A stretch of 64,000 nt of DNA from Methanothermococcus sp. Ax23 (GCF_049075655.1 NZ_CP157522.1:96001-160000); one strand, 5' to 3'. Counted from the stretch's first letter, positions 11,756 to 55,586 are shown. Numbers and translations are program-made. The notes: a model not told the origin generated them from the letters alone.

Positions 11756-11878
11756 AATATACATCTATTTTTCTTTTTTATATTATTTTAAAAGGATATT
11801 TTCTAAAAAAATTTAAAAATAAAAAATTATAAATATACCAAATTTTTATGGTATAATAAATTCACACTTAATTAAGGG

Positions 11879-12904
11879 GTGGTTTATATTAAAAAAACAT
11901 TATTTATGATTATTATTTTCGGATTTTTAATTTCTCCAATTTACGCAGTTTCAGATGTTCAAATATATCCTTCAAATCCAAATATAATGGACACTCTAAC
12001 ATTAACAGGAAAAGCCAGTCCAAACGAAGATATAAACTGTCAGGCATGGTTTGAAGTAAATCCAATAATATCTCCACCGTACTATGGATATCTTATGAAT
12101 AGTGTTGAAATACCCTCATCCCCAAATAATTTTAAAGTTGTTGCTGAAAATGTAAATAAAGTATATGTAAGCGTAAAAATGGGCATATGGGTCACAAAAA
12201 GTGCAAATGCAGATAGCAATGGCGTGGCAACAGTTTCTCAGTCAAATGTTCCTGTGGGAACCTATGACATAAAAATAGGAGGGACAATAAAAGATTCATC
12301 AAAACCTGTGAAATTAAAAATCATTGCATCTACAACCATAAAGGCAGATGAGAATGGGAATTTTGAATATTCCTACAAAGTTATAGATGGCATTCCTAAA
12401 ACTACAATTTTACATTTAAAGATTGAAAACATCACCAAAAATATATCTATCGCAGGTCGTAAATTACATATTTACAAAGGATGGAATGCCATATCGGTTC
12501 CATATAATTCAAATATATCCTATAACAATAACTCCAATATAAAATTAATAATAACTTATTCCAATCAAAAATGGACTTTAAATAGAAATAACAATTTAAA
12601 TGCACTTTATGGATACTTTATATATGCTGAAAACGATACTGAAATGGATGTATATTATGATACCAATAAATCCAACTGTTCAAGAATTATCAATAAAGGA
12701 TACAATTTGATAGGAATTGCCCCAAATGACTATGATTGGAATTTTAGAAATGGAAATATTTTAGCTTATGAATTATTTAAAAATTCTAGTTCGTATTATA
12801 GGATAATATCTACTGAGGGTGAGCTCTACTCAAACAATTCCTACTTGGAACCTTTTAAAGCATATTGGTTATTTACCAGTGAAAATGCCACTATATCGAG
12901 GTGA
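11879..12904 (+). CDS. Secreted surface protein, paralog 1
   Basis: Signal peptide. About 145 aa N-terminal domain nearly identical to the next gene. C-terminal KGWNAISVP / KGYNLIG repeats. Confidence 0.7.
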   Translation: MVYIKKTLFMIIIFGFLISPIYAVSDVQIYPSNPNIMDTLTLTGKASPNEDINCQAWFEVNPIISPPYYGYLMNSVEIPSSPNNFKVVAENVNKVYVSVKMGIWVTKSANADSNGVATVSQSNVPVGTYDIKIGGTIKDSSKPVKLKIIASTTIKADENGNFEYSYKVIDGIPKTTILHLKIENITKNISIAGRKLHIYKGWNAISVPYNSNISYNNNSNIKLIITYSNQKWTLNRNNNLNALYGYFIYAENDTEMDVYYDTNKSNCSRIINKGYNLIGIAPNDYDWNFRNGNILAYELFKNSSSYYRIISTEGELYSNNSYLEPFKAYWLFTSENATISR

Positions 12905-13401
12905 TGATTATTATTAAAAAAATACTATTTTTAATTATTTTAGGATTATTTATTTCATCAGCATATGCAGTTTCAGATATTCAAATATCTCCTTCAAACC
13001 CAAAAGTGGGAGACACTCTAACATTAACAGGAAAAGCCAATCCAAACGAAGATATAAACTGTCAGGCATGGTTTGAAGTAAATCCAATAATATCTCCACC
13101 ATACTATGGATATCTTATGAATAGTGTTGAAATACCCTCATCCCCAAATAATTTTAAAGTTGTTGCTGAAAATGTAAATAAAGTATATGTAAGCGTAAAA
13201 ATGGGCATATGGGTCACAAAAAGTGCAAATGCAGACAGTAATGGCATAGCAATAGTTTCTCAGTCAAATGTTCCTGTGGGAACCTATGACATAAAAATAG
13301 GGGGGACAATAAAAGATTCATCAAAACCTGTGAAATTAAAAATCATTGCATCTACAACTATAAAGGCAGATGAGAATGGATATTTTGAATATTCCTACAA
13401 A
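11945..13401 (+). repeat. About 435 bp near-identical direct repeat (11945-12379 vs 12967-13401)
   Basis: gcagtttcagat...tcctacaaa occurs twice, offset 1022 bp, with scattered mismatches only. Confidence 0.9.
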
Positions 13402-18658: not shown

Positions 18659-19783
18659 ATGAAAATTGGAATTATAACAGATAGGTTAAACAGACCTTTA
18701 ACTGGTGTTGGGAACTATGTATATCACTTAACAAAAGAACTTTTAAAAATTGATAAAGATAAAATTTACTTAATAAATTACAATACTTTTGGAGATCCAC
18801 ATGTGGATAATAAAATAATGATTATAAAAAATTATTTTAGAAGTTTTCCAAAACCGTATTATTTTTGGAACTGGTATTTAAATTACAAATTGAACATAAC
18901 CAATATTGGACTTGATGTAATTCATAGTCCAGAAAGTAGCACGATTTATATGAAACTCAGATTTCAAAAGAAAATTATAACCGTTTATGACATTAGGCAG
19001 TATTTATATCCCGATATCTCAAACACAATGAACAAGTACGGATATAAGATATTTTTTCCAAAAACTCTAAAATCCGCCGATAAAATAATATCAATATCTC
19101 AACATACAAAAAATGATTTAATAAACCATTTTAAAATTCCAGAAGATAAAATAAAAGTAATACACTTGGCAGCAAATGAAAACTACAAACCATTAAGAGA
19201 AAATGAGATAAACGAAATAAAACAAAAATACAATCTAATTTATCCATTTATATTATATGTTGGAACATTAGAACAACACAAAAATATTCCAACATTATTA
19301 AAAGCACTTTACAAACTTAAAAAAATGGGGACGAAACATAAATTAGTAATCACTGGTAAAAAAGGATGGAAATACAAATCCATCTTTGAAACCATAGAAA
19401 AACTAAACCTACAAAAGGATGTAATATTCACTGGCTATGTTCCAGATGAAGATTTACCTGCTTTATATAACGCTGCTGATTTATTCGTTTATCCTTCTAT
19501 TTATGAAGGATTTGGATTGCCACCATTAGAGGCAATGGCATGTGGAACGCCAGTTGTAACTTCAAACACTTCCTCTCTACCCGAAGTGGTTGGAGATGCT
19601 GGAATAATGGTTAATCCTTATGATGTTAACGAGTTAGCTAAGGCAATGTATGAAGTTTTAACTAACAATGGATTAAGAGAAGAGCTATCTAAGAAAGGTT
19701 TAGAAAGAGCCAAACTATTCAGCTGGAAAAAATGTGCAGAAGAACATTTAAAAGTTTATGAAGAAGTTTATAATGTGAAATGA
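18659..19783 (+). CDS. GT4 glycosyltransferase, paralog 1
   Basis: [18 protein letters not shown] motif. Confidence 0.9.
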
Positions 19784-20900
19784 GGGGAAGAATGAAGATT
19801 GGAATTATTTCAGAAAAATTAAATCCTCCAAGAACAGGCGTTGGAAATTATTTATACAATACATTGAAGGCTACTGCTAAATTACAAAATAAGAATTATT
19901 GTCTAATTAACTATCAACATAATAATTTAATTCCAAGTGCGAATCTGATAGTTGTAAAAAAACCATTTAATAATAGATACTTATGGTATCAAATTTTGCC
20001 CATAAATAACAGTTTAGAAAATTTAGATATAATTCACAACCCTTTTCAAATTCCAACAATTCTTAATTTTAAACAAAAATATATAATGTCTGTTTTAGAT
20101 TTAATACAAATATTATTTCCAAAAGAAATTGAAAAAAGTGTTTATTTGTTTCAAAAAATTATACTTTCGAAATCCATAAAATCCGCCGATAAAATAATCT
20201 CAATTTCACACCATACAAAACAAGATATAATAAAATACTTTAAAATTCCAGAAGATAAAATAAAAGTAATTCACTTAGCAGCAAATGAAAACTACAAACC
20301 ATTGAGAGAAAATGAGATAAATGACATAAAACAAAAGTATAACTTAAACTATCCCTTTATATTATATGTCGGAACCTTGGAACCAAGAAAAAACATTCCA
20401 ACTCTATTAAAAGCACTTTACAAACTTAAAAAAATGGGGACGAAACATAAATTAGTAATCACTGGTAAAAAAGGATGGAAATACAAATCCATCTTTGAAA
20501 CCATAGAAAAACTAAACCTACAAAAGGATGTAATATTCACTGGCTATGTTCCAGATGAAGATTTACCTGCTTTATACAACGCTGCTGATTTATTCGTTTA
20601 TCCTTCTATTTATGAAGGATTTGGATTGCCACCATTAGAGGCAATGGCATGTGGAACGCCAGTTGTAACTTCAAACACTTCCTCTCTACCCGAAGTGGTT
20701 GGAGATGCTGGAATAATGGTTAATCCTTATGATGTTAACGAGTTAGCTAAGGCAATGTATGAAGTTTTAACTAACGATGGATTAAGAGAAGAGCTATCTA
20801 AGAAAGGTTTAGAAAGAGCCAAACTATTCAGCTGGAAAAAATGTGCAGAAGAACATTTAAAAGTTTATGAAGAAGTTTATAATGTGAAATGAGGGGAAGA
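19070..20900 (+). repeat. About 720 bp direct repeat between the GT4 3' halves (19070-19791 vs 20179-20900)
   Basis: Offset 1109 bp. The last ~490 bp are identical apart from about 2 substitutions seen, and include the stop codon and downstream RBS (aatgtgaaatgaggggaaga). Confidence 0.92.
19792..20892 (+). CDS. GT4 glycosyltransferase, paralog 2
   Basis: Same GT4 C-terminal motifs. ATG at 19792 follows GAGGGG. Confidence 0.9.
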
Positions 20901-29873: not shown

Positions 29874-30387
29874 TTAATTTTTGTTTTTTAATTCATCCCT
29901 AATCTCTTTTAAAATTTCTTTCATTTCGTTCTGTCCTTTTATTATAGTTTCTTGCCCTTTTTTAACTTCTTCCAAAATTCCAAATATCATTTTAATATAT
30001 TTAACTCCTTCATCAAGTTTTTTATTCAATCGGAGTGAGCGAAGCGAACGGAGAGCTACGAAAACATTGGTTTTCGTTCAATTCCATTAAATCATCCGCT
30101 GATATTCTATTGATTCCTTTTGGAAATTCAATATATGAATTTAGTTCTTTTTCCTCAATCTCTTCTATTTTGATTAACTCATCCTTTTTTGCCAATGTCT
30201 TAATATTTCTTTTGAATAAATCTTTTATTTCTTCATCATCAAAGTTTGCCAAAATCCTAACTGTTCCATCCTCATAATTATAAACTACTCCATCAATACC
30301 TAAACCTCTCCCAATGTCTTCTATCCTATCTCTAAATCCAACATGCTGGACTTTACCATATATTTTTAACTCGTAAGTTGTCGCCAT
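29874..30387 (-). pseudogene. Acylphosphatase-domain/coiled-coil protein disrupted by a micro-insertion
   Basis: [20 protein letters not shown] fold motif. Removing 52 bp restores a 153 aa ORF ending ..[21 protein letters not shown]. Confidence 0.85.
30031..30076 (-). mobile_element. Double-hairpin micro-insertion with TTCAAT duplication
   Basis: ttcaat at 30025-30030 and 30077-30082 flanks a GC-rich insert containing gagcgaagcga and acgaaaac-attg-gttttcgt. Confidence 0.85.
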
Positions 30388-34644: not shown

Positions 34645-35918
34645 ATGGTGAATTCCATGCAAGTAACCAGAGTGCTGACAATAAACCTAACAAGAAAACT
34701 AACCAATGAACAATTAATAATCATAAACCATTTAACCTATTCAGCATCAAAACTCTGGAATACATCCAACTACGAAGTAATACAGCGAAATATTAAACCA
34801 AATAAAATAGATGTTCAAATGAAGAACAACTTCTGGTTTAAAAATCTTCATTCACAGTCAGCACAGGCAGTATGTCAAAAACTTCAAATTAGACGAAAAC
34901 CTTCGGTTTTCGTTGCTCGCTTGCTACGCAAGCGATTGCATGGCAAAACTACTTCAAACAGCACACTAAAAGACCACGATACCAACCAAAAGATGGACAC
35001 TTTCCCGTAAAATGGAAGAAGCAAGGTTTCAAAATCATAGGCAATAAGTTAAGGTTATCATTATCTAAACAAACTAAAAACTATCTCAAAGAGAAGCATG
35101 GTATCAAGTCCAAGTACTTATGGGTAGATTTATCGAAAACTCTACCGCTTGATACCATGCAGGTTAAAGAAGTTGAGATAGTTCCGCAGACCATCTATGG
35201 GATAACCTACTACATACTTCACTTAATCCATAAGAAACCAGTAATTCAAGAACCTATCAAAGAAGGTAATATACTAAGTATTGATTTAGGAATTAAGAAT
35301 TTAGCAACAGTAGTAACCAATACGGGCAGTGCAGTAATCTACGATGGAAGAAGGTTAATTTCTAAATTCCGATGGTTTGCTAAAAGTAAAGGAAAAATCC
35401 AATCTACCCTAACAAAGCAAGAGTTAAAATATAATAAACGATTATCCCGCTTAACAGTAAGGGAAAAGAATTATACTAAGGATTATCTACATAAAATAAG
35501 TAAAATGATTATCGATTTTGCAGTGGATAACAAAGTTTCAAGGATTGTAATCGGCGAGTTAAACAAAGGCATTTCAAGTATTGACATTGGAGATAGGGTT
35601 AATCAGCAATTGCATAGAATACCTTTTGGTAGGTTAGTAAGTATGATAACATATAAGGCAGAGGAAAAGGGATTAACAGTAGAACAGGTTAATGAAGCTT
35701 ATACTTCTCAAACTTGCAGTAATTGTGGTGTAGTTAAAAAGAGTAATAGGAAGTATAGGGGTTTGTATGTGTGTAGTGAGTGTGGCATGGTTTTGAATGC
35801 AGACATTAACGGGGCTTTGAATATTTTAAAAAAAGTATCGCATAAGGTAGCCCTGAATCTCCTAAACGGAGATAGGGGTAGTGGGCTTGGCAACCCATGT
35901 AGGGTTAGACCCTGCTAA
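34645..35918 (+). pseudogene. tnpB: TnpB RNA-guided nuclease frameshifted by a 47 bp insertion
   Basis: N-terminal SKLWN..LHSQSAQ; RuvC SIDLG / IVIGEL / NADINGA; Zn finger CSNC..CSEC. Removing 47 bp joins both ORFs into 408 aa with no stops. Confidence 0.9.
34891..34934 (+). mobile_element. Double-hairpin micro-insertion with ATT duplication inside tnpB
   Basis: att|ag-acgaaaacc-ttc-ggttttcgt-tgc-tcgcttgc-tac-gcaagcg|att. Confidence 0.88.
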
Positions 35919-36803: not shown

Positions 36804-37436
36804 TTAGAATATATTTTTTTCCCGGAGCTCCCCTATTATCTCATCATGCACTTCTTCAATGGTCTTTCCAGTGGTATCTATTTGAATATATCCATATTTT
36901 GGTTCAAACAATCTTCTTTCAATGATTTCATGATATTTTTTTCTTACCTTCTCCAACATTTCCTTATTTTCAAATATTTCTTTACTTCTTCCACCCATTC
37001 TTTTAAATGATTCTTCAATATCCACATCTAAAAATATTAAAACATCGGGTTTTTTGGCAAATTTATTGATATTCATGATAAAATCCAATTCAATCCCCTG
37101 AATAGACTGATAAACCATTGAAGAATAAATATATCTATCGCAAACAATGTGGGATTTTTTTAAATTTTGTTCTATATCCACTACATGCTCCACCCTATCT
37201 GCTGCAAACAGCAGTGCAAGTGTTTCTTTTTCGCATTTCGAGCGTAGCGAGGAATGAGCAAGTCCGCAGGATTTGCGTAATTTTTTACCGCTTAATACCT
37301 TTCGTATAAGTTTTCCAATCTCTCCATTTGTAGGTTCGCAGGTGTATTTTCCCTTTATTTTTTCAGAAAGTAGTTTCGACTGGGTAGTTTTTCCGCTTCC
37401 ATCTATTCCTTCAAACACTATGAATTTATTATTCAT
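36804..37436 (-). CDS. tmk: Thymidylate kinase carrying a 15 aa in-frame insertion
   Basis: [31 protein letters not shown]; extra segment [15 protein letters not shown]. Confidence 0.93.
37239..37279 (-). mobile_element. Double-hairpin micro-insertion (AAAT duplication, net 45 bp) inside tmk
   Basis: Minus strand reads aaat|tac-gcaaatcc-tgc-ggacttgc-tcattc-ctcgctacgctcg|aaat. Confidence 0.85.
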
Positions 37437-37569
37437 TTCTTCCACCAAATGCTAAATACTGCTATACACTATACTGTTTATAACTAAAAAGAGAATATAA
37501 TAAAATATATGATATAACAAATCCGCATAATAATATCCATTATAATAATACAGGTTTACAATTATAGAT

Positions 37570-51787: not shown

Positions 51788-54700
51788 GTTAAAATCAGAC
51801 CATAGTGGGATGGAAATTCAAAGAAGGATGCAATAGGTAGGAAAATAGAAAGGGGTTAAAATCAGACCATAGTGGGATGGAAATCGTGAAAAGGATAATA
51901 TATATATATTAGCTCTATGGCGTTAAAATCAGACCATAGTGGGATGGAAATATATCAGTTGGATTCAGTATCAATTTTGGCGTTTGAAGTTAAAATCAGA
52001 CCATAGTGGGATGGAAATATCCAGCCTTTATCATCATTATATGTAATTCTCGGACGTTAAAATCAGACCATAGTGGGATGGAAATATTTAACATATGTAT
52101 AGGTACGCAATATACCAAATCCGTTAAAATCAGACCATAGTGGGATGGAAATGTTTTTCTTATGCTTTTGTTTTCCCAAAGCTTTGCTTTGTTAAAATCA
52201 GACCATAGTGGGATGGAAATATTCTTTTATATTTACTTCGTATATGTCTTTTTCAATGTTAAAATCAGACCATAGTGGGATGGAAATTTCTCTCTATTGT
52301 ATTACTATGGTAATACTAATATATAGTTAAAATCAGACCATAGTGGGATGGAAATCAAAATGTAAATGATGCCCTTAAATCCGTTTTAAAGGGTTAAAAT
52401 CAGACCATAGTGGGATGGAAATGCGTCATAGTCACACTTACATATAGTGTCTATATTTTGGTTAAAATCAGACCATAGTGGGATGGAAATAATGAAAGTG
52501 CGTCAAAATCAATTATTTCAATTTCGTTAAAATCAGACCATAGTGGGATGGAAATAAAAAGCGTATTAGACGATATTAATCTCAACATGTTAAAATCAGA
52601 CCATAGTGGGATGGAAATTTTTTTTCCAAAGTTAATTATAAATATTGTTTTTTTTAGTTAAAATCAGACCATAGTGGGATGGAAATTCGTCAGTTGGTTC
52701 AAGTGTTCCGTCCTCTATGGTTAAAATCAGACCATAGTGGGATGGAAATCAATAACTGCTTCATTAATTGTAATTGTAACATCTAGTTAAAATCAGACCA
52801 TAGTGGGGTGGAAATTTAAATCAAATACGATTATTGTATTGTTCTTTTGTAAAGTTAAAATCAGACCATAGTGGGATGGAAATTTTATAGGAGAGGGGTT
52901 TGTTTTTTCCCACACTCCCACGTTAAAATCAGACCATAGTGGGGTGGAAATTTAATTCGTCTAAGTTCATAATATCACCTTTCATTCATTCGTTAAAATC
53001 AGACCATAGTGGGATGGAAATTTTGATTCTTGGTTTATTATTCCAACATGTCCAGATTGTTAAAATCAGACCATAGTGGGGTGGAAATTTCATTATCCAA
53101 CAATAGCGTAATTGATGACGATTTAGTTAAAATCAGACCATAGTGGGATGGAAATAATATTGAGATTGTAGGGATGAGTAGTAGCATATCCCCGTTAAAA
53201 TCAGACCATAATGGAAATATAAAAACTGCAGAAGAAATATATAAACACTTGAAAAAGGTTAAAATCAGACCATAGTGGGATGGAAATTTTTATGACTGAA
53301 ACATATTCTTTTATGGTATATTTGTTAAAATCAGACCATAGTGGGATGGAAATAATATATTTTCATACTATTTAAACCTTACTAAAAAATAGTTAAAATC
53401 AGACCATAGTGGGATGGAAATTTTCATGAAGAAGAACTAAAAAATGATGAGGATTTAAGTTAAAATCAGACCATAGTGGGATGGAAATATTTATTGGCTC
53501 GCTTCGCTCGCCAATCAATAGGAACCTGTTAAAATCAGACCATAGTGGGATGGAAATTCTCTTGCGTATTTGTGGGGTGGTGGGGGTTCTCTTCCGTTAA
53601 AATCAGACCATAGTGGGATGGAAATCTATCTTATGGGGGTATTCTGGAATTACGAGAGTTTGTTAAAATCAGACCATAGTGGGATGGAAATTCAAAACAA
53701 GGTTGGGCTTTTGCCCTGACAATATATGAAGTTAAAATCAGACCATAGTGGGATGGAAATTAGGAAGTTTATTCGTTCTATTCTGATCGATAAACTCGTT
53801 AAAATCAGACCATAGTGGGATGGAAATTTTGGATGTTTAATTGAAAGTGGATTTATTAAAGTTAAAATCAGACCATAGTGGGATGGAAATATGGGAATGA
53901 GTTAAAATACTGCGTATTTGTTCTGAACGTTAAAATCAGACCATAGTGGGATGGAAATCATATAAAAAAAGCGGCAGAGATGAGGCTCACAGGTTTGTTA
54001 AAATCAGACCATAGTGGGATGGAAATTCATTAATTCAATAATGATGTTAGACTTTGTTTTTACCGTTAAAATCAGACCATAGTGGGATGGAAATGTTTGG
54101 ATCGTTGCCAGGATGAAAACAACAGTAGGTTAAAATCAGACCATAGTGGGATGGAAATGATGGTCCTGTTGAGTTTATTGGGTGATTGGGTGATTGTTAA
54201 AATCAGACCATAGTGGGATGGAAATACTGCATATCTTCGTCCTTGTTTTGCATTATCAATATAGTTAAAATCAGACCATAGTGGGATGGAAATATCTGTA
54301 ATTACGTAATCGATTAAATAGAAATCGTTAAAATCAGACCATAGTGGGATGGAAATCTAACAACGTTGTTGGTAAAATCATGGGATAATCCAAAGTTAAA
54401 ATCAGACCATAGTGGGATGGAAATTTTCTTTTAAAAATTCATGGTAGAGCCTGTGTGGTTAAAATCAGACCATAGTGGGATGGAAATTTTCTTTTAAAAA
54501 TTCATGGTAGAGCCTGTGTGGTTAAAATCAGACCATAGTGGGATGGAAAGTATTTTCAGATATTGGCGTTATTGTCAAATATTGAGAGGTTAAAATCAGA
54601 CCATAGTGGGATGGAAAGCGATTTGGGTATTGGCGGATTACTTGAGGGGGTGGTAGTTAAAATCAGACCATAGTGGGATGGAAATTCCTGCTGGTGCAAG

Positions 54701-55266
54701 GACAGTCATCAGGGGCTGTTGTGTTAAAATCAGACCATAGTGGGATGGAAATGGTGAAATGATACTAAACGCATTTAATTTTATATGGTTAAAATCAGAC
54801 CATAGTGGGATGGAAATATCGTCTGGCAATCTAGATAATATTTCTGCTGGGCAGTTAAAATCAGACCATAGTGGGATGGAAATTTGTCGTTCTTTATATT
54901 GTTAAAATCAGACCATAGTGGGATGGAAATTGATGTTGAACCAAGTAGCATTGAAGAATTCAAAGAGTTAAAATCAGACCATAGTGGGATGGAAATTATT
55001 TTGTTGAATACATTTTTATTTTTCGAGATAATTGTTAAAATCAGACCAAGTGGGATGGAAATAACTCAATAATTAACTTAACGGATAATGAATATAGAAA
55101 GTTAAAATCAGACCATAGTGGGATGGAAATAGAAATTATAGAGCGTATGGCAGATATACTTTTAGAGGAGTTAAAATCAGACCATAGTGGGATGGAAATA
55201 CGATATTGAATGCACAAGTAAGTTATGGAAGTTGGTGTTAAAATCAGACCATAGTGGGATGGAAAT
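51788..55266 (+). CRISPR. CRISPR array, about 53 repeats / 52 spacers
   Basis: 30 bp repeat GTTAAAATCAGACCATAGTGGGATGGAAAT. Spacers are mostly 33-40 nt. Count is manual. Confidence 0.98.
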
Positions 55267-55586
55267 AAAATCAAAGGATGGCAAGATAAATATTTACATT
55301 ACAGTTATAAATCATCTCTATGGAGTTTATTCAAATGAGCTCAGGACATATGGAAAAATACAAAATGTATAAAAAGGACTATAACAACCTAAGGCATACA
55401 ACAATAGTAGCTCACGGGTTTAAAGGGATAAAAAATTATTAAATAAAATGCTAACAGATAATCCAAATTAATAAAGATATTGATAAGTATTTCAAAACTA
55501 TTAAATCAGAATTCTTCAATATTGCAGACAAAGATGAATCGAATATATTTGACAAACTAAATGATGAGATAATATATAATCTATAA
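55267..55586 (+). pseudogene. Possible decayed C-terminus of a CARF-HEPN (Csx1/Csm6-like) ribonuclease
   Basis: 55374-55430 translates to KDYNNLRHTTIVAHGFKGI (HEPN R-x6-H-like, AHGF). Another frame ends ..NIFDKLNDEIIYNL*. Broken by stops and frameshifts. Confidence 0.45.

Follow-up and report, generated by a model that had tools for sequence, protein, structure and literature searches.

The window analysed here is a stretch of 64,000 nucleotides from the genome of Methanothermococcus sp. Ax23 (NZ_CP157522.1:96001-160000), and positions are counted from its first letter unless chromosomal coordinates are given. The genome to which it belongs, called G000 where genomes have to be told apart, is 98.9% complete. 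On the minus strand the window carries the gene for thymidylate kinase, tmk, which is split in frame by a short segment in which the remains of a repeated, hairpin-forming element can be recognised. The features concerned are:

36804..37436, minus strand: tmk, thymidylate kinase, 210 codons and a stop, single-copy (open reading frame list, PF02223, PDB matches, Foldseek)
37236..37280, minus strand: in-frame insert coding for 15 residues, given in codon-aligned register (45-base gap in relatives, profile of the repeat family)
37258..37276, minus strand: remnant of hairpin 1, an 8-pair stem with one A-C mismatch and a 3-base loop (alignment to hairpin 1 of the family)
37240..37250, minus strand: conserved loop motif of hairpin 2, TCGCTACGCTC (family alignment), with the stem weakened in the tmk copy

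The Pfam profile Thymidylate_kin (PF02223) matches the product over all of its positions (1-185 of 185) with an E-value of 4.4e-42 and 144.3 bits, against a cut-off of 27, and sequence matches of the protein in the PDB are to thymidylate kinases without exception. A P-loop and a DR(Y/H) motif are defining marks of the thymidylate kinase family, and the corresponding GIDGSGKT and CDRY are invariant in our alignment with relatives. We found tmk in 40 of the 41 Methanococcales genomes searched, with exactly one match in G000. If a TTG start were used the open reading frame would extend over 36804-37448; the ATG at 37436, giving a protein that begins MNNKF..., was preferred and is more plausibly the true start, judging from the relatives and from a stop that lies just upstream in one of them (G012).

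A preliminary description of this DNA had placed an in-frame insertion of net 45 bp in thymidylate kinase at 37235..37283. This is exactly the range of its register ambiguity, there being five possible placements because AAAT flanks the insert on both sides, and the DNA alignment shows a single clean 45-base gap opposite it in G003, G012 and G010. In the protein the insert splits GKK-CEKE between the EPT and LLFAADR motifs, with the reading frame remaining open, and the closest relatives, G003 (90% identity) and G012 (84%), have an uninterrupted SGKK-CEKE. Alignment with other Methanococcales Tmk sequences, which the same description had put forward as a check, was carried out on the tmk loci of 29 relatives and, at the protein level, on 21 relatives. 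When the Tmk protein was searched by tblastn, 14-25 gap positions were opened in each of the 29 loci, exactly 15 in each of the two closest, and the columns of the insert are empty in 21 of 21 aligned proteins. The segment, being absent from every one of the 29 loci, is not conserved across the order; it is a lineage-specific insertion of a repeated element and no conserved part of Tmk. That it is ancestral and was lost from all other Methanococcales tmk genes is a formal possibility only and has next to no probability, since many independent and exact 45-base losses would be needed to leave it absent from 29 of 29 loci in five genera.

Metagenome contigs from three studies (runs X2, X6 and X8) span the insert without a gap, differing by one substitution elsewhere, which shows that the insertion is real and no artefact of assembly and that it is fixed in natural populations. 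In a further run of isolate type, X4, two contigs meet at 37226-37236, at the edge of the insert, with an overlap of 11 bases, an observation that proves nothing either way. We also considered an intein and rejected it, as 15 residues are too short for one and tmk holds no Pfam domain beyond those of the kinase families.

Direct searches with the insert brought back little apart from itself. Near-exact searches of the window with a 39-mer and a 22-mer, each allowing up to three mismatches, matched only the tmk copy; blastn-short of the insert against the genome returned only fragments of 13-18 bases, two of which lie in 23S rRNA; and the output of a repeat search of the whole window consisted mostly of the CRISPR array and of AT-rich chance pairs. 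The family was first reached through 9-mers taken from the loop motif, in the GC-rich 3' half of the insert, and then through profiles.

A typical copy of the element is 45-55 bases long and is built from a short leader (often ATTAGAY), hairpin 1, a short spacer and hairpin 2. Hairpin 1 has an AT-rich stem of 6-9 pairs and mostly a CTTCG loop, and hairpin 2 has a stem of 5-6 pairs that encloses the conserved loop TCGCT(A/T)(T/C)CGCTC, so that it is the loop of hairpin 2 that is conserved whereas the stems vary. With nhmmer we count 40 copies in G000 at E<=0.05. A covariance model, R1, which was made from ten copies with the tmk copy left out, gives 78 matches at E<=1 and, at the stricter limit of E<=0.001, 35. 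The loop motif, written as TCGCT-N1-2-CGCTC, is present 35 times in G000 and absent from a first-order shuffle of its genome. No terminal inverted repeats were seen in the alignments of the family, and a search of Rfam 15 with 20 loci that hold copies produced one chance-level match (E 0.37).

The two-hairpin structure was assigned by hand on a 10-copy alignment, after RNAalifold had predicted no pairs on a plain MAFFT alignment of 25 copies, a null result that arises because stems of unequal length are misaligned. On a MAFFT alignment, which is fitted to no structure, 87.8% of the cells pair, compared with 26-51% for slid partners, 6 of 15 pairs change on both sides, and the covariation score was reached by none of 500 shuffles. 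The alignment fitted to the model, which is biased in favour of the structure, gives 90% of cells paired and 11 of 15 pairs covarying. Folded singly, 29 of 32 copies form the two hairpins.

Across the order, the family is present in 19 of 41 Methanococcales genomes (R1, E<=0.001). It occurs in five of the 12 other genomes of the own genus, in 1/1 of group g2, 2/2 of g4 and 10/17 of g5, a genus of the second family of the order, and in 0/7 of g3 and 0/1 of the outgroup; the architecture of the copies in other genera is identical. In G000 at least five copies lie head to tail in about 270 bases of intergenic DNA (G000:C1:364960-365300). A spacer of the window's CRISPR array, at 53489-53527, contains a perfect hairpin-2 module, with a 6-bp stem (ATTGGC/GCCAAT) and the conserved loop, and matches no chromosomal copy of the element, from which it follows that some foreign DNA met by the cell carries a member of the family.

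The tmk insert is a real but degenerate member of this family, in which the hairpins have been eroded. A profile built without the tmk copy finds the insert with an E-value of 9.4e-6 and 26.5 bits, at rank 18 of 112, and in a shuffled genome the best match to the same leave-one-out profile reaches 8.8 bits. The match covers both modules of the family in the correct order and includes the 11-base loop motif. R1 gives the tmk copy 23.6 bits, which corresponds to an E-value of 0.0074 in the window and 0.19 genome-wide, and by our own count on the alignment the nearest family copy is about 80% identical to it. It is one of three copies in 32 that do not adopt the two-hairpin fold; its minimum-energy fold is a different one, and its folding does not differ significantly from that of shuffled sequence (z -0.42 as RNA and -0.83 as DNA). 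It might be argued that the 45 bases are an ordinary lineage-specific indel, produced by replication slippage or local duplication, and that the likeness to the repeat is coincidental, given that the covariance model taken alone is marginal at the scale of the genome and that no close source copy was found. The separation between the leave-one-out match and the shuffled genome, the presence of both modules in order and the count of the loop motif, 35 against zero, all speak against coincidence. Moreover, the first 11 bases of the insert agree with those of two other copies, in a QueC-like gene and a radical-SAM gene, save for one C/T difference, and neither the repeat search of the window nor blastn-short detected a local duplication at the insert. 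We therefore regard a coincidental indel as extremely improbable and take the insert as a family member in what follows.

The family reaches other genes as well. Ten of 32 good copies lie inside crude open reading frames and 22 outside, in a genome of which about 85% is open reading frame, a low share that fits the loss of most insertions into genes. Six copies are in conserved genes, namely tmk and five others, and all six are in frame, have lengths that are multiples of three, hold no stop and are absent from some orthologues. The five others, with names assigned from Pfam, are:

QueC-like PP-loop gene: in-frame copy, in G000 only
ATP-grasp gene: in-frame copy with the element antisense, in G000 only
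trpD-like gene: in-frame copy, complete in G000, with a 30-base internal deletion in G003 and G012, absent from G010, G008 and G005
radical-SAM gene: in-frame copy in G000, G003 and G012, shortened by 3 bases in G012; not present in G008, G005 or G010
nnr (YjeF_N plus Carb_kinase): in-frame copy in G000, G003, G010 and G012; not present in G005 or G008

In the three shared inserts (nnr, trpD-like and radical-SAM) the hairpin-forming bases drift, the frame is open in every carrier, and the only changes in length are those of 30 and 3 bases. The remaining four copies in reading frames are in a truncated-looking DDE transposase gene, in two probable 5' extensions of reading frames and in a doubtful frame of 125 codons. 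With regard to the nnr orthologue of G012 (G012:C1:21263-22879), we note that it is in two pieces with one internal TGA, for which a frameshift, pseudogene formation or an error in the sequence could each account.

Two further copies lie in coding sequence within the window:

34888-34939, plus strand: sister copy in a gene of a TnpB-type insertion sequence (IS), R1 34 bits, E 4.3e-5, of a sub-family with a different second hairpin; frameshift
30032-30082, minus strand: sister copy at the 3' end of an acylphosphatase-family reading frame (30022-30387; Pfam Acylphosphatase), R1 23.3 bits, E 0.0084

The preliminary description held that these two insertions are frameshifting and lie in dispensable genes, and this agrees with what we find: the first splits the TnpB frame and the second truncates a protein of a multi-copy family. 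The reading frame downstream of the first copy matches OrfB_IS605 and a Cas12f1-like TNB domain, and all seven near-identical copies of this IS, at 34645-35918 of the window and at six other places in G000, carry the element of about 52 bases with the N-terminal part of TnpB out of frame with the rest. Either tnpB was already broken as this IS spread, or the frameshift is in some way bypassed. The acylphosphatase-family protein is about 40 residues longer in G003 and G010, and in G000 it continues into element-encoded residues and then a stop; the gene has several paralogues and pseudogenes in the relatives. The idea that selection filters these insertions, also raised in that description, is consistent with the deficit of copies in reading frames, with the six in-frame copies in conserved genes and with the confinement of frame-breaking copies to the TnpB gene, the truncated DDE transposase gene and the multi-copy acylphosphatase-family gene.

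These copies also bear on whether the insert reaches the protein at all. The 45 bases could in principle be excised at the RNA level, whether as an archaeal bulge-helix-bulge intron or in some other way, in which case the enzyme would be unchanged and the frame irrelevant. By eye, the beginning of the insert can be paired with the bases that directly follow its end in a helix of 4 base pairs (CGCA with UGCG), and the frame-shifting element in all seven copies of the TnpB IS would be harmless if it were removed from RNA. However, inspection by eye indicates that the A-rich flanks at tmk permit neither an outer nor an inner helix and that the nnr copy has no comparable helix, and the minimum-energy fold does not contain the helix of a bulge-helix-bulge motif. 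The frame of spliced inserts would be unprotected, yet those in nnr, the trpD-like gene and the radical-SAM gene are open in all their carriers, and the verified copies in conserved genes are without exception multiples of three without stops. The frame kept in shared, older insertions thus argues for translation and against removal from RNA, and excision at tmk seems to us highly unlikely. Very probably, then, the tmk insert stays in the mRNA and is read into the protein as a surface loop that the enzyme tolerates.

To place that loop on the enzyme, an AlphaFold2 model of Tmk was made from a 22-row alignment. The model has a mean pLDDT of 88 and a pTM of 0.85, and the top 50 Foldseek matches to it are Tmk structures (TM 0.72-0.81). 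The pLDDT falls below 50 only at residues 52-66, and the insert occupies residues 53-67 counted from the ATG, between a helix at 39-49 (helix 2) and a helix at 70-92 (helix 3). Modelling had been suggested in the preliminary description as a way of seeing whether the insert is a surface loop, and in the result the insert forms a loop of low confidence that joins helices 2 and 3, the rest of the Tmk fold being predicted with confidence; low pLDDT is expected where no relative has the residues and may reflect only that. The insert is probably a disordered surface loop of 15 residues, and the element may, as the preliminary description proposed, generate new protein loops. An argument that solved Tmk structures have a longer loop at the same position was dropped, as the phmmer alignment to the Tmk of Plasmodium falciparum, which sets part of the insert against the region of helix 2, is by eye misaligned.

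We take the helices that flank the insert to be those that line the dTMP site in solved Tmk structures, and an effect on substrate affinity is thus possible by analogy. It could be proposed from this that the insert is useful, either as a loop that tunes Tmk (substrate affinity, stability or a partner) or as a regulatory hairpin in the mRNA. It is fixed in the populations of three studies, and it adjoins helices that line the nucleotide site in solved Tmk structures, whose fold Foldseek matches to the model. A precedent is RPE, a palindromic repeat of Rickettsia: in the portions of the source consulted, the copy within the guanylate kinase gene gmk is translated and the protein is active with altered substrate affinity (PMC2229807). 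Against usefulness, the insert is limited to the lineage of one species, its hairpins have been eroded and not maintained, comparable insertions in other genes have degenerated and become shorter in the relatives, and the model gives it no defined structure. A useful insert is in our view unlikely, and the effect of the tolerated loop on the enzyme would be neutral or mildly harmful.

How the element moves can be approached through the IS copies with which it is associated. Three diverged copies (87-89% identical) of a 1.45-kb TnpB-only IS carry it at three different positions of the left-end hairpin. In a relative, G015, an IS with an intact tnpA (Y1) has an element of 49 bases where the copies in G024 and G032 are empty, with a junction ambiguity of 1 base. 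These two sets of sites indicate that the element moves independently. Filled and empty sites differ by an ambiguity of 4 bases at tmk and 3 at the QueC-like gene, so that insertion involves no genuine duplication of the target. To the left of the element the flanking sequence ends in ...GATGAAT, ...GAAAT, ...AAAAT, ...ACGAT or ...GAAGT, a bias that we judged by eye. The 1.45-kb copies are of IS200/IS605 type and lie at G000:C1:336250-337900, 199470-201120 and 1308320-1309950; in the counterpart in G010 fragments of tnpA remain between the left end and tnpB. A reversed module resembling hairpin 1, seen by eye at the right end of this IS, was discarded, as R1 does not find it.

One route would be movement as single-stranded hairpin DNA by means of an IS200/IS605-type Y1 (HUH) transposase acting in trans. 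The hairpins, the lack of target duplication, the bias in the flanks and the tight link with IS200/IS605 left ends are in its favour. The Y1 transposase profile PF01797 gave no match in G000, with positive results in control genomes, and it was found in only six of 40 relatives, some of these matches being fragments (intact in G015, G024, G032 and G040); this speaks against the route, and elements are also present in genomes where the search found no Y1 transposase. Overall we consider Y1-mediated movement a tenable candidate, somewhat short of probable. A more far-reaching proposal is that of an order-wide, self-contained double hairpin that inserts without target duplication, would home preferentially to ...GATGAAT in the left-end hairpin of IS200/IS605 elements, as a parasite of transposons, and would have been made repeatedly into loops of housekeeping enzymes as the genus diversified. 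We regard this as conjectural and rather doubtful, and as a bolder extension of it the frame-shifting copy in the seven-copy TnpB IS might be removed or bypassed at the RNA level. If the homing parasite were real, it would rank among the smallest protein-coding mobile elements known and would offer a dated series of loop births in Archaea.

Palindromic repeats that stand in frame in housekeeping genes are described, in the portions of the literature consulted, from Rickettsia (RPE; Ogata 2000), Wolbachia and Methanocaldococcus jannaschii (PMC2229807, PMC10969869, PMC2996958). As far as those portions go, RPEs resemble the present element in forming a family of hairpins found both between genes and in frame in conserved housekeeping genes, to whose products they add a peptide, and gmk is, like tmk, the gene of a nucleoside-monophosphate kinase. 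They differ, again going by the portions at hand, in being 105-150 bases long, bacterial and bounded by terminal inverted repeats, whereas the present element is of 45-55 bases and archaeal, with two separate small hairpins and no visible terminal inverted repeat. Compared with protein-coding palindromic repeats as a class, it likewise has a multi-copy intergenic family and a place in frame in a conserved gene from whose orthologues it is absent, and the hairpins are evident for the family and eroded in the tmk copy.

MJRE1-3 of M. jannaschii are, according to the sections consulted, palindromic repeats, and some of them lie in frame within protein-coding genes (Suyama, Lathe and Bork 2005; PMC2229807, PMC2996958). 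Both they and the present element have hosts in the order Methanococcales, and the latter occurs with the same architecture in ten of 17 g5 genomes. The MJRE set reportedly numbers 141 elements, with three copies of MJRE2 inside genes. The present element is found in another host genus, in at least six conserved genes including tmk, and with insertions that can be ordered along the species tree. The two, which we compared by description only, may form one super-family.

A further comparison is with REP/BIME and other IS200/IS605-derived elements, which in the excerpts consulted share with the present element small hairpins, the lack of target duplication, what looks by eye like a preference for insertion beside a short motif, clustered mosaics in both orientations and a physical link to IS200/IS605 left ends (PMC3333891, PMC8266576). 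They differ in that G000 has no Y1 transposase and the element no conserved GTAG or CGTC tag, and in that the element is a double hairpin whose loop, not stem, is conserved; REPs are moreover extragenic by definition, whereas the present element is also found inside genes. PATEs are IS200/IS605-derived miniature elements of haloarchaea. Classical MITEs are similarly short, non-autonomous and multi-copy; they differ from the present element, which is without terminal inverted repeats and leaves 1-4 ambiguous bases at filled and empty sites, 1 in the cleanest. Neither Rfam nor the papers searched gave an account of the family in Methanothermococcus.

Our analysis establishes that a mobile double-hairpin repeat has inserted in frame into a single-copy essential gene, that this insertion is fixed and specific to the lineage, and that five further conserved genes have received such insertions in the course of the history of the genus. 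The most satisfactory explanation overall, and one that we think very probable, is that of a decayed copy of a small non-autonomous mobile element that inserted into tmk and is read as a tolerated loop. The element would have entered tmk in the lineage of the present species, after the split from its closest sampled relatives, landing beside an A-rich ...AAAT without a real target duplication. Its length is a multiple of three, it holds no stop in the tmk frame, and its site lies in the connection between helices 2 and 3, so that the enzyme would have survived and the insertion become fixed. The mRNA would keep the 45 bases and the ribosome read them as a 15-residue loop, and the insert would persist because its length and frame happened to fit, with most genic insertions purged.

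The case illustrates how an essential enzyme can gain residues from selfish DNA of only about 45 bases and survive. The insertions in conserved genes form a natural time series, in which those in tmk, the QueC-like gene and the ATP-grasp gene are one species old, those in the trpD-like and radical-SAM genes are a few species old and that in nnr is older. The afterlife of insertions can be followed in this series: the hairpins erode, and the loop is shortened by deletions that leave the reading frame intact. In-frame repeats are a kind already known, and the small size, tmk as the target and a series of insertions that can be dated make this a useful case and not a surprise. The birth of loops from mobile DNA becomes testable in a cultivable thermophilic archaeon, with Rickettsia Gmk as the parallel and the one experimentally studied case. 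For annotation, the element explains odd species-specific insertions in Methanococcales proteins.

Some other features of the window may be recorded. Its CRISPR array, at 51788-55318, has 51 repeats of 30 bases by pattern, from which 48 spacers were extracted. Two neighbouring spacers, 54425-54457 and 54488-54520, are identical, and another, 54931-54966, matches the cell's own chromosome at G000:C1:296238-296273 with 94% identity over 36 bases, a near self-target that is perhaps a provirus or an integrated element. Finally, direct repeats of 300 bases stand in two pairs, at 11878-13199 and 19056-20464; the members of a pair share 88-89% identity and are separated by about 1.0-1.1 kb, which probably reflects tandem paralogous genes.
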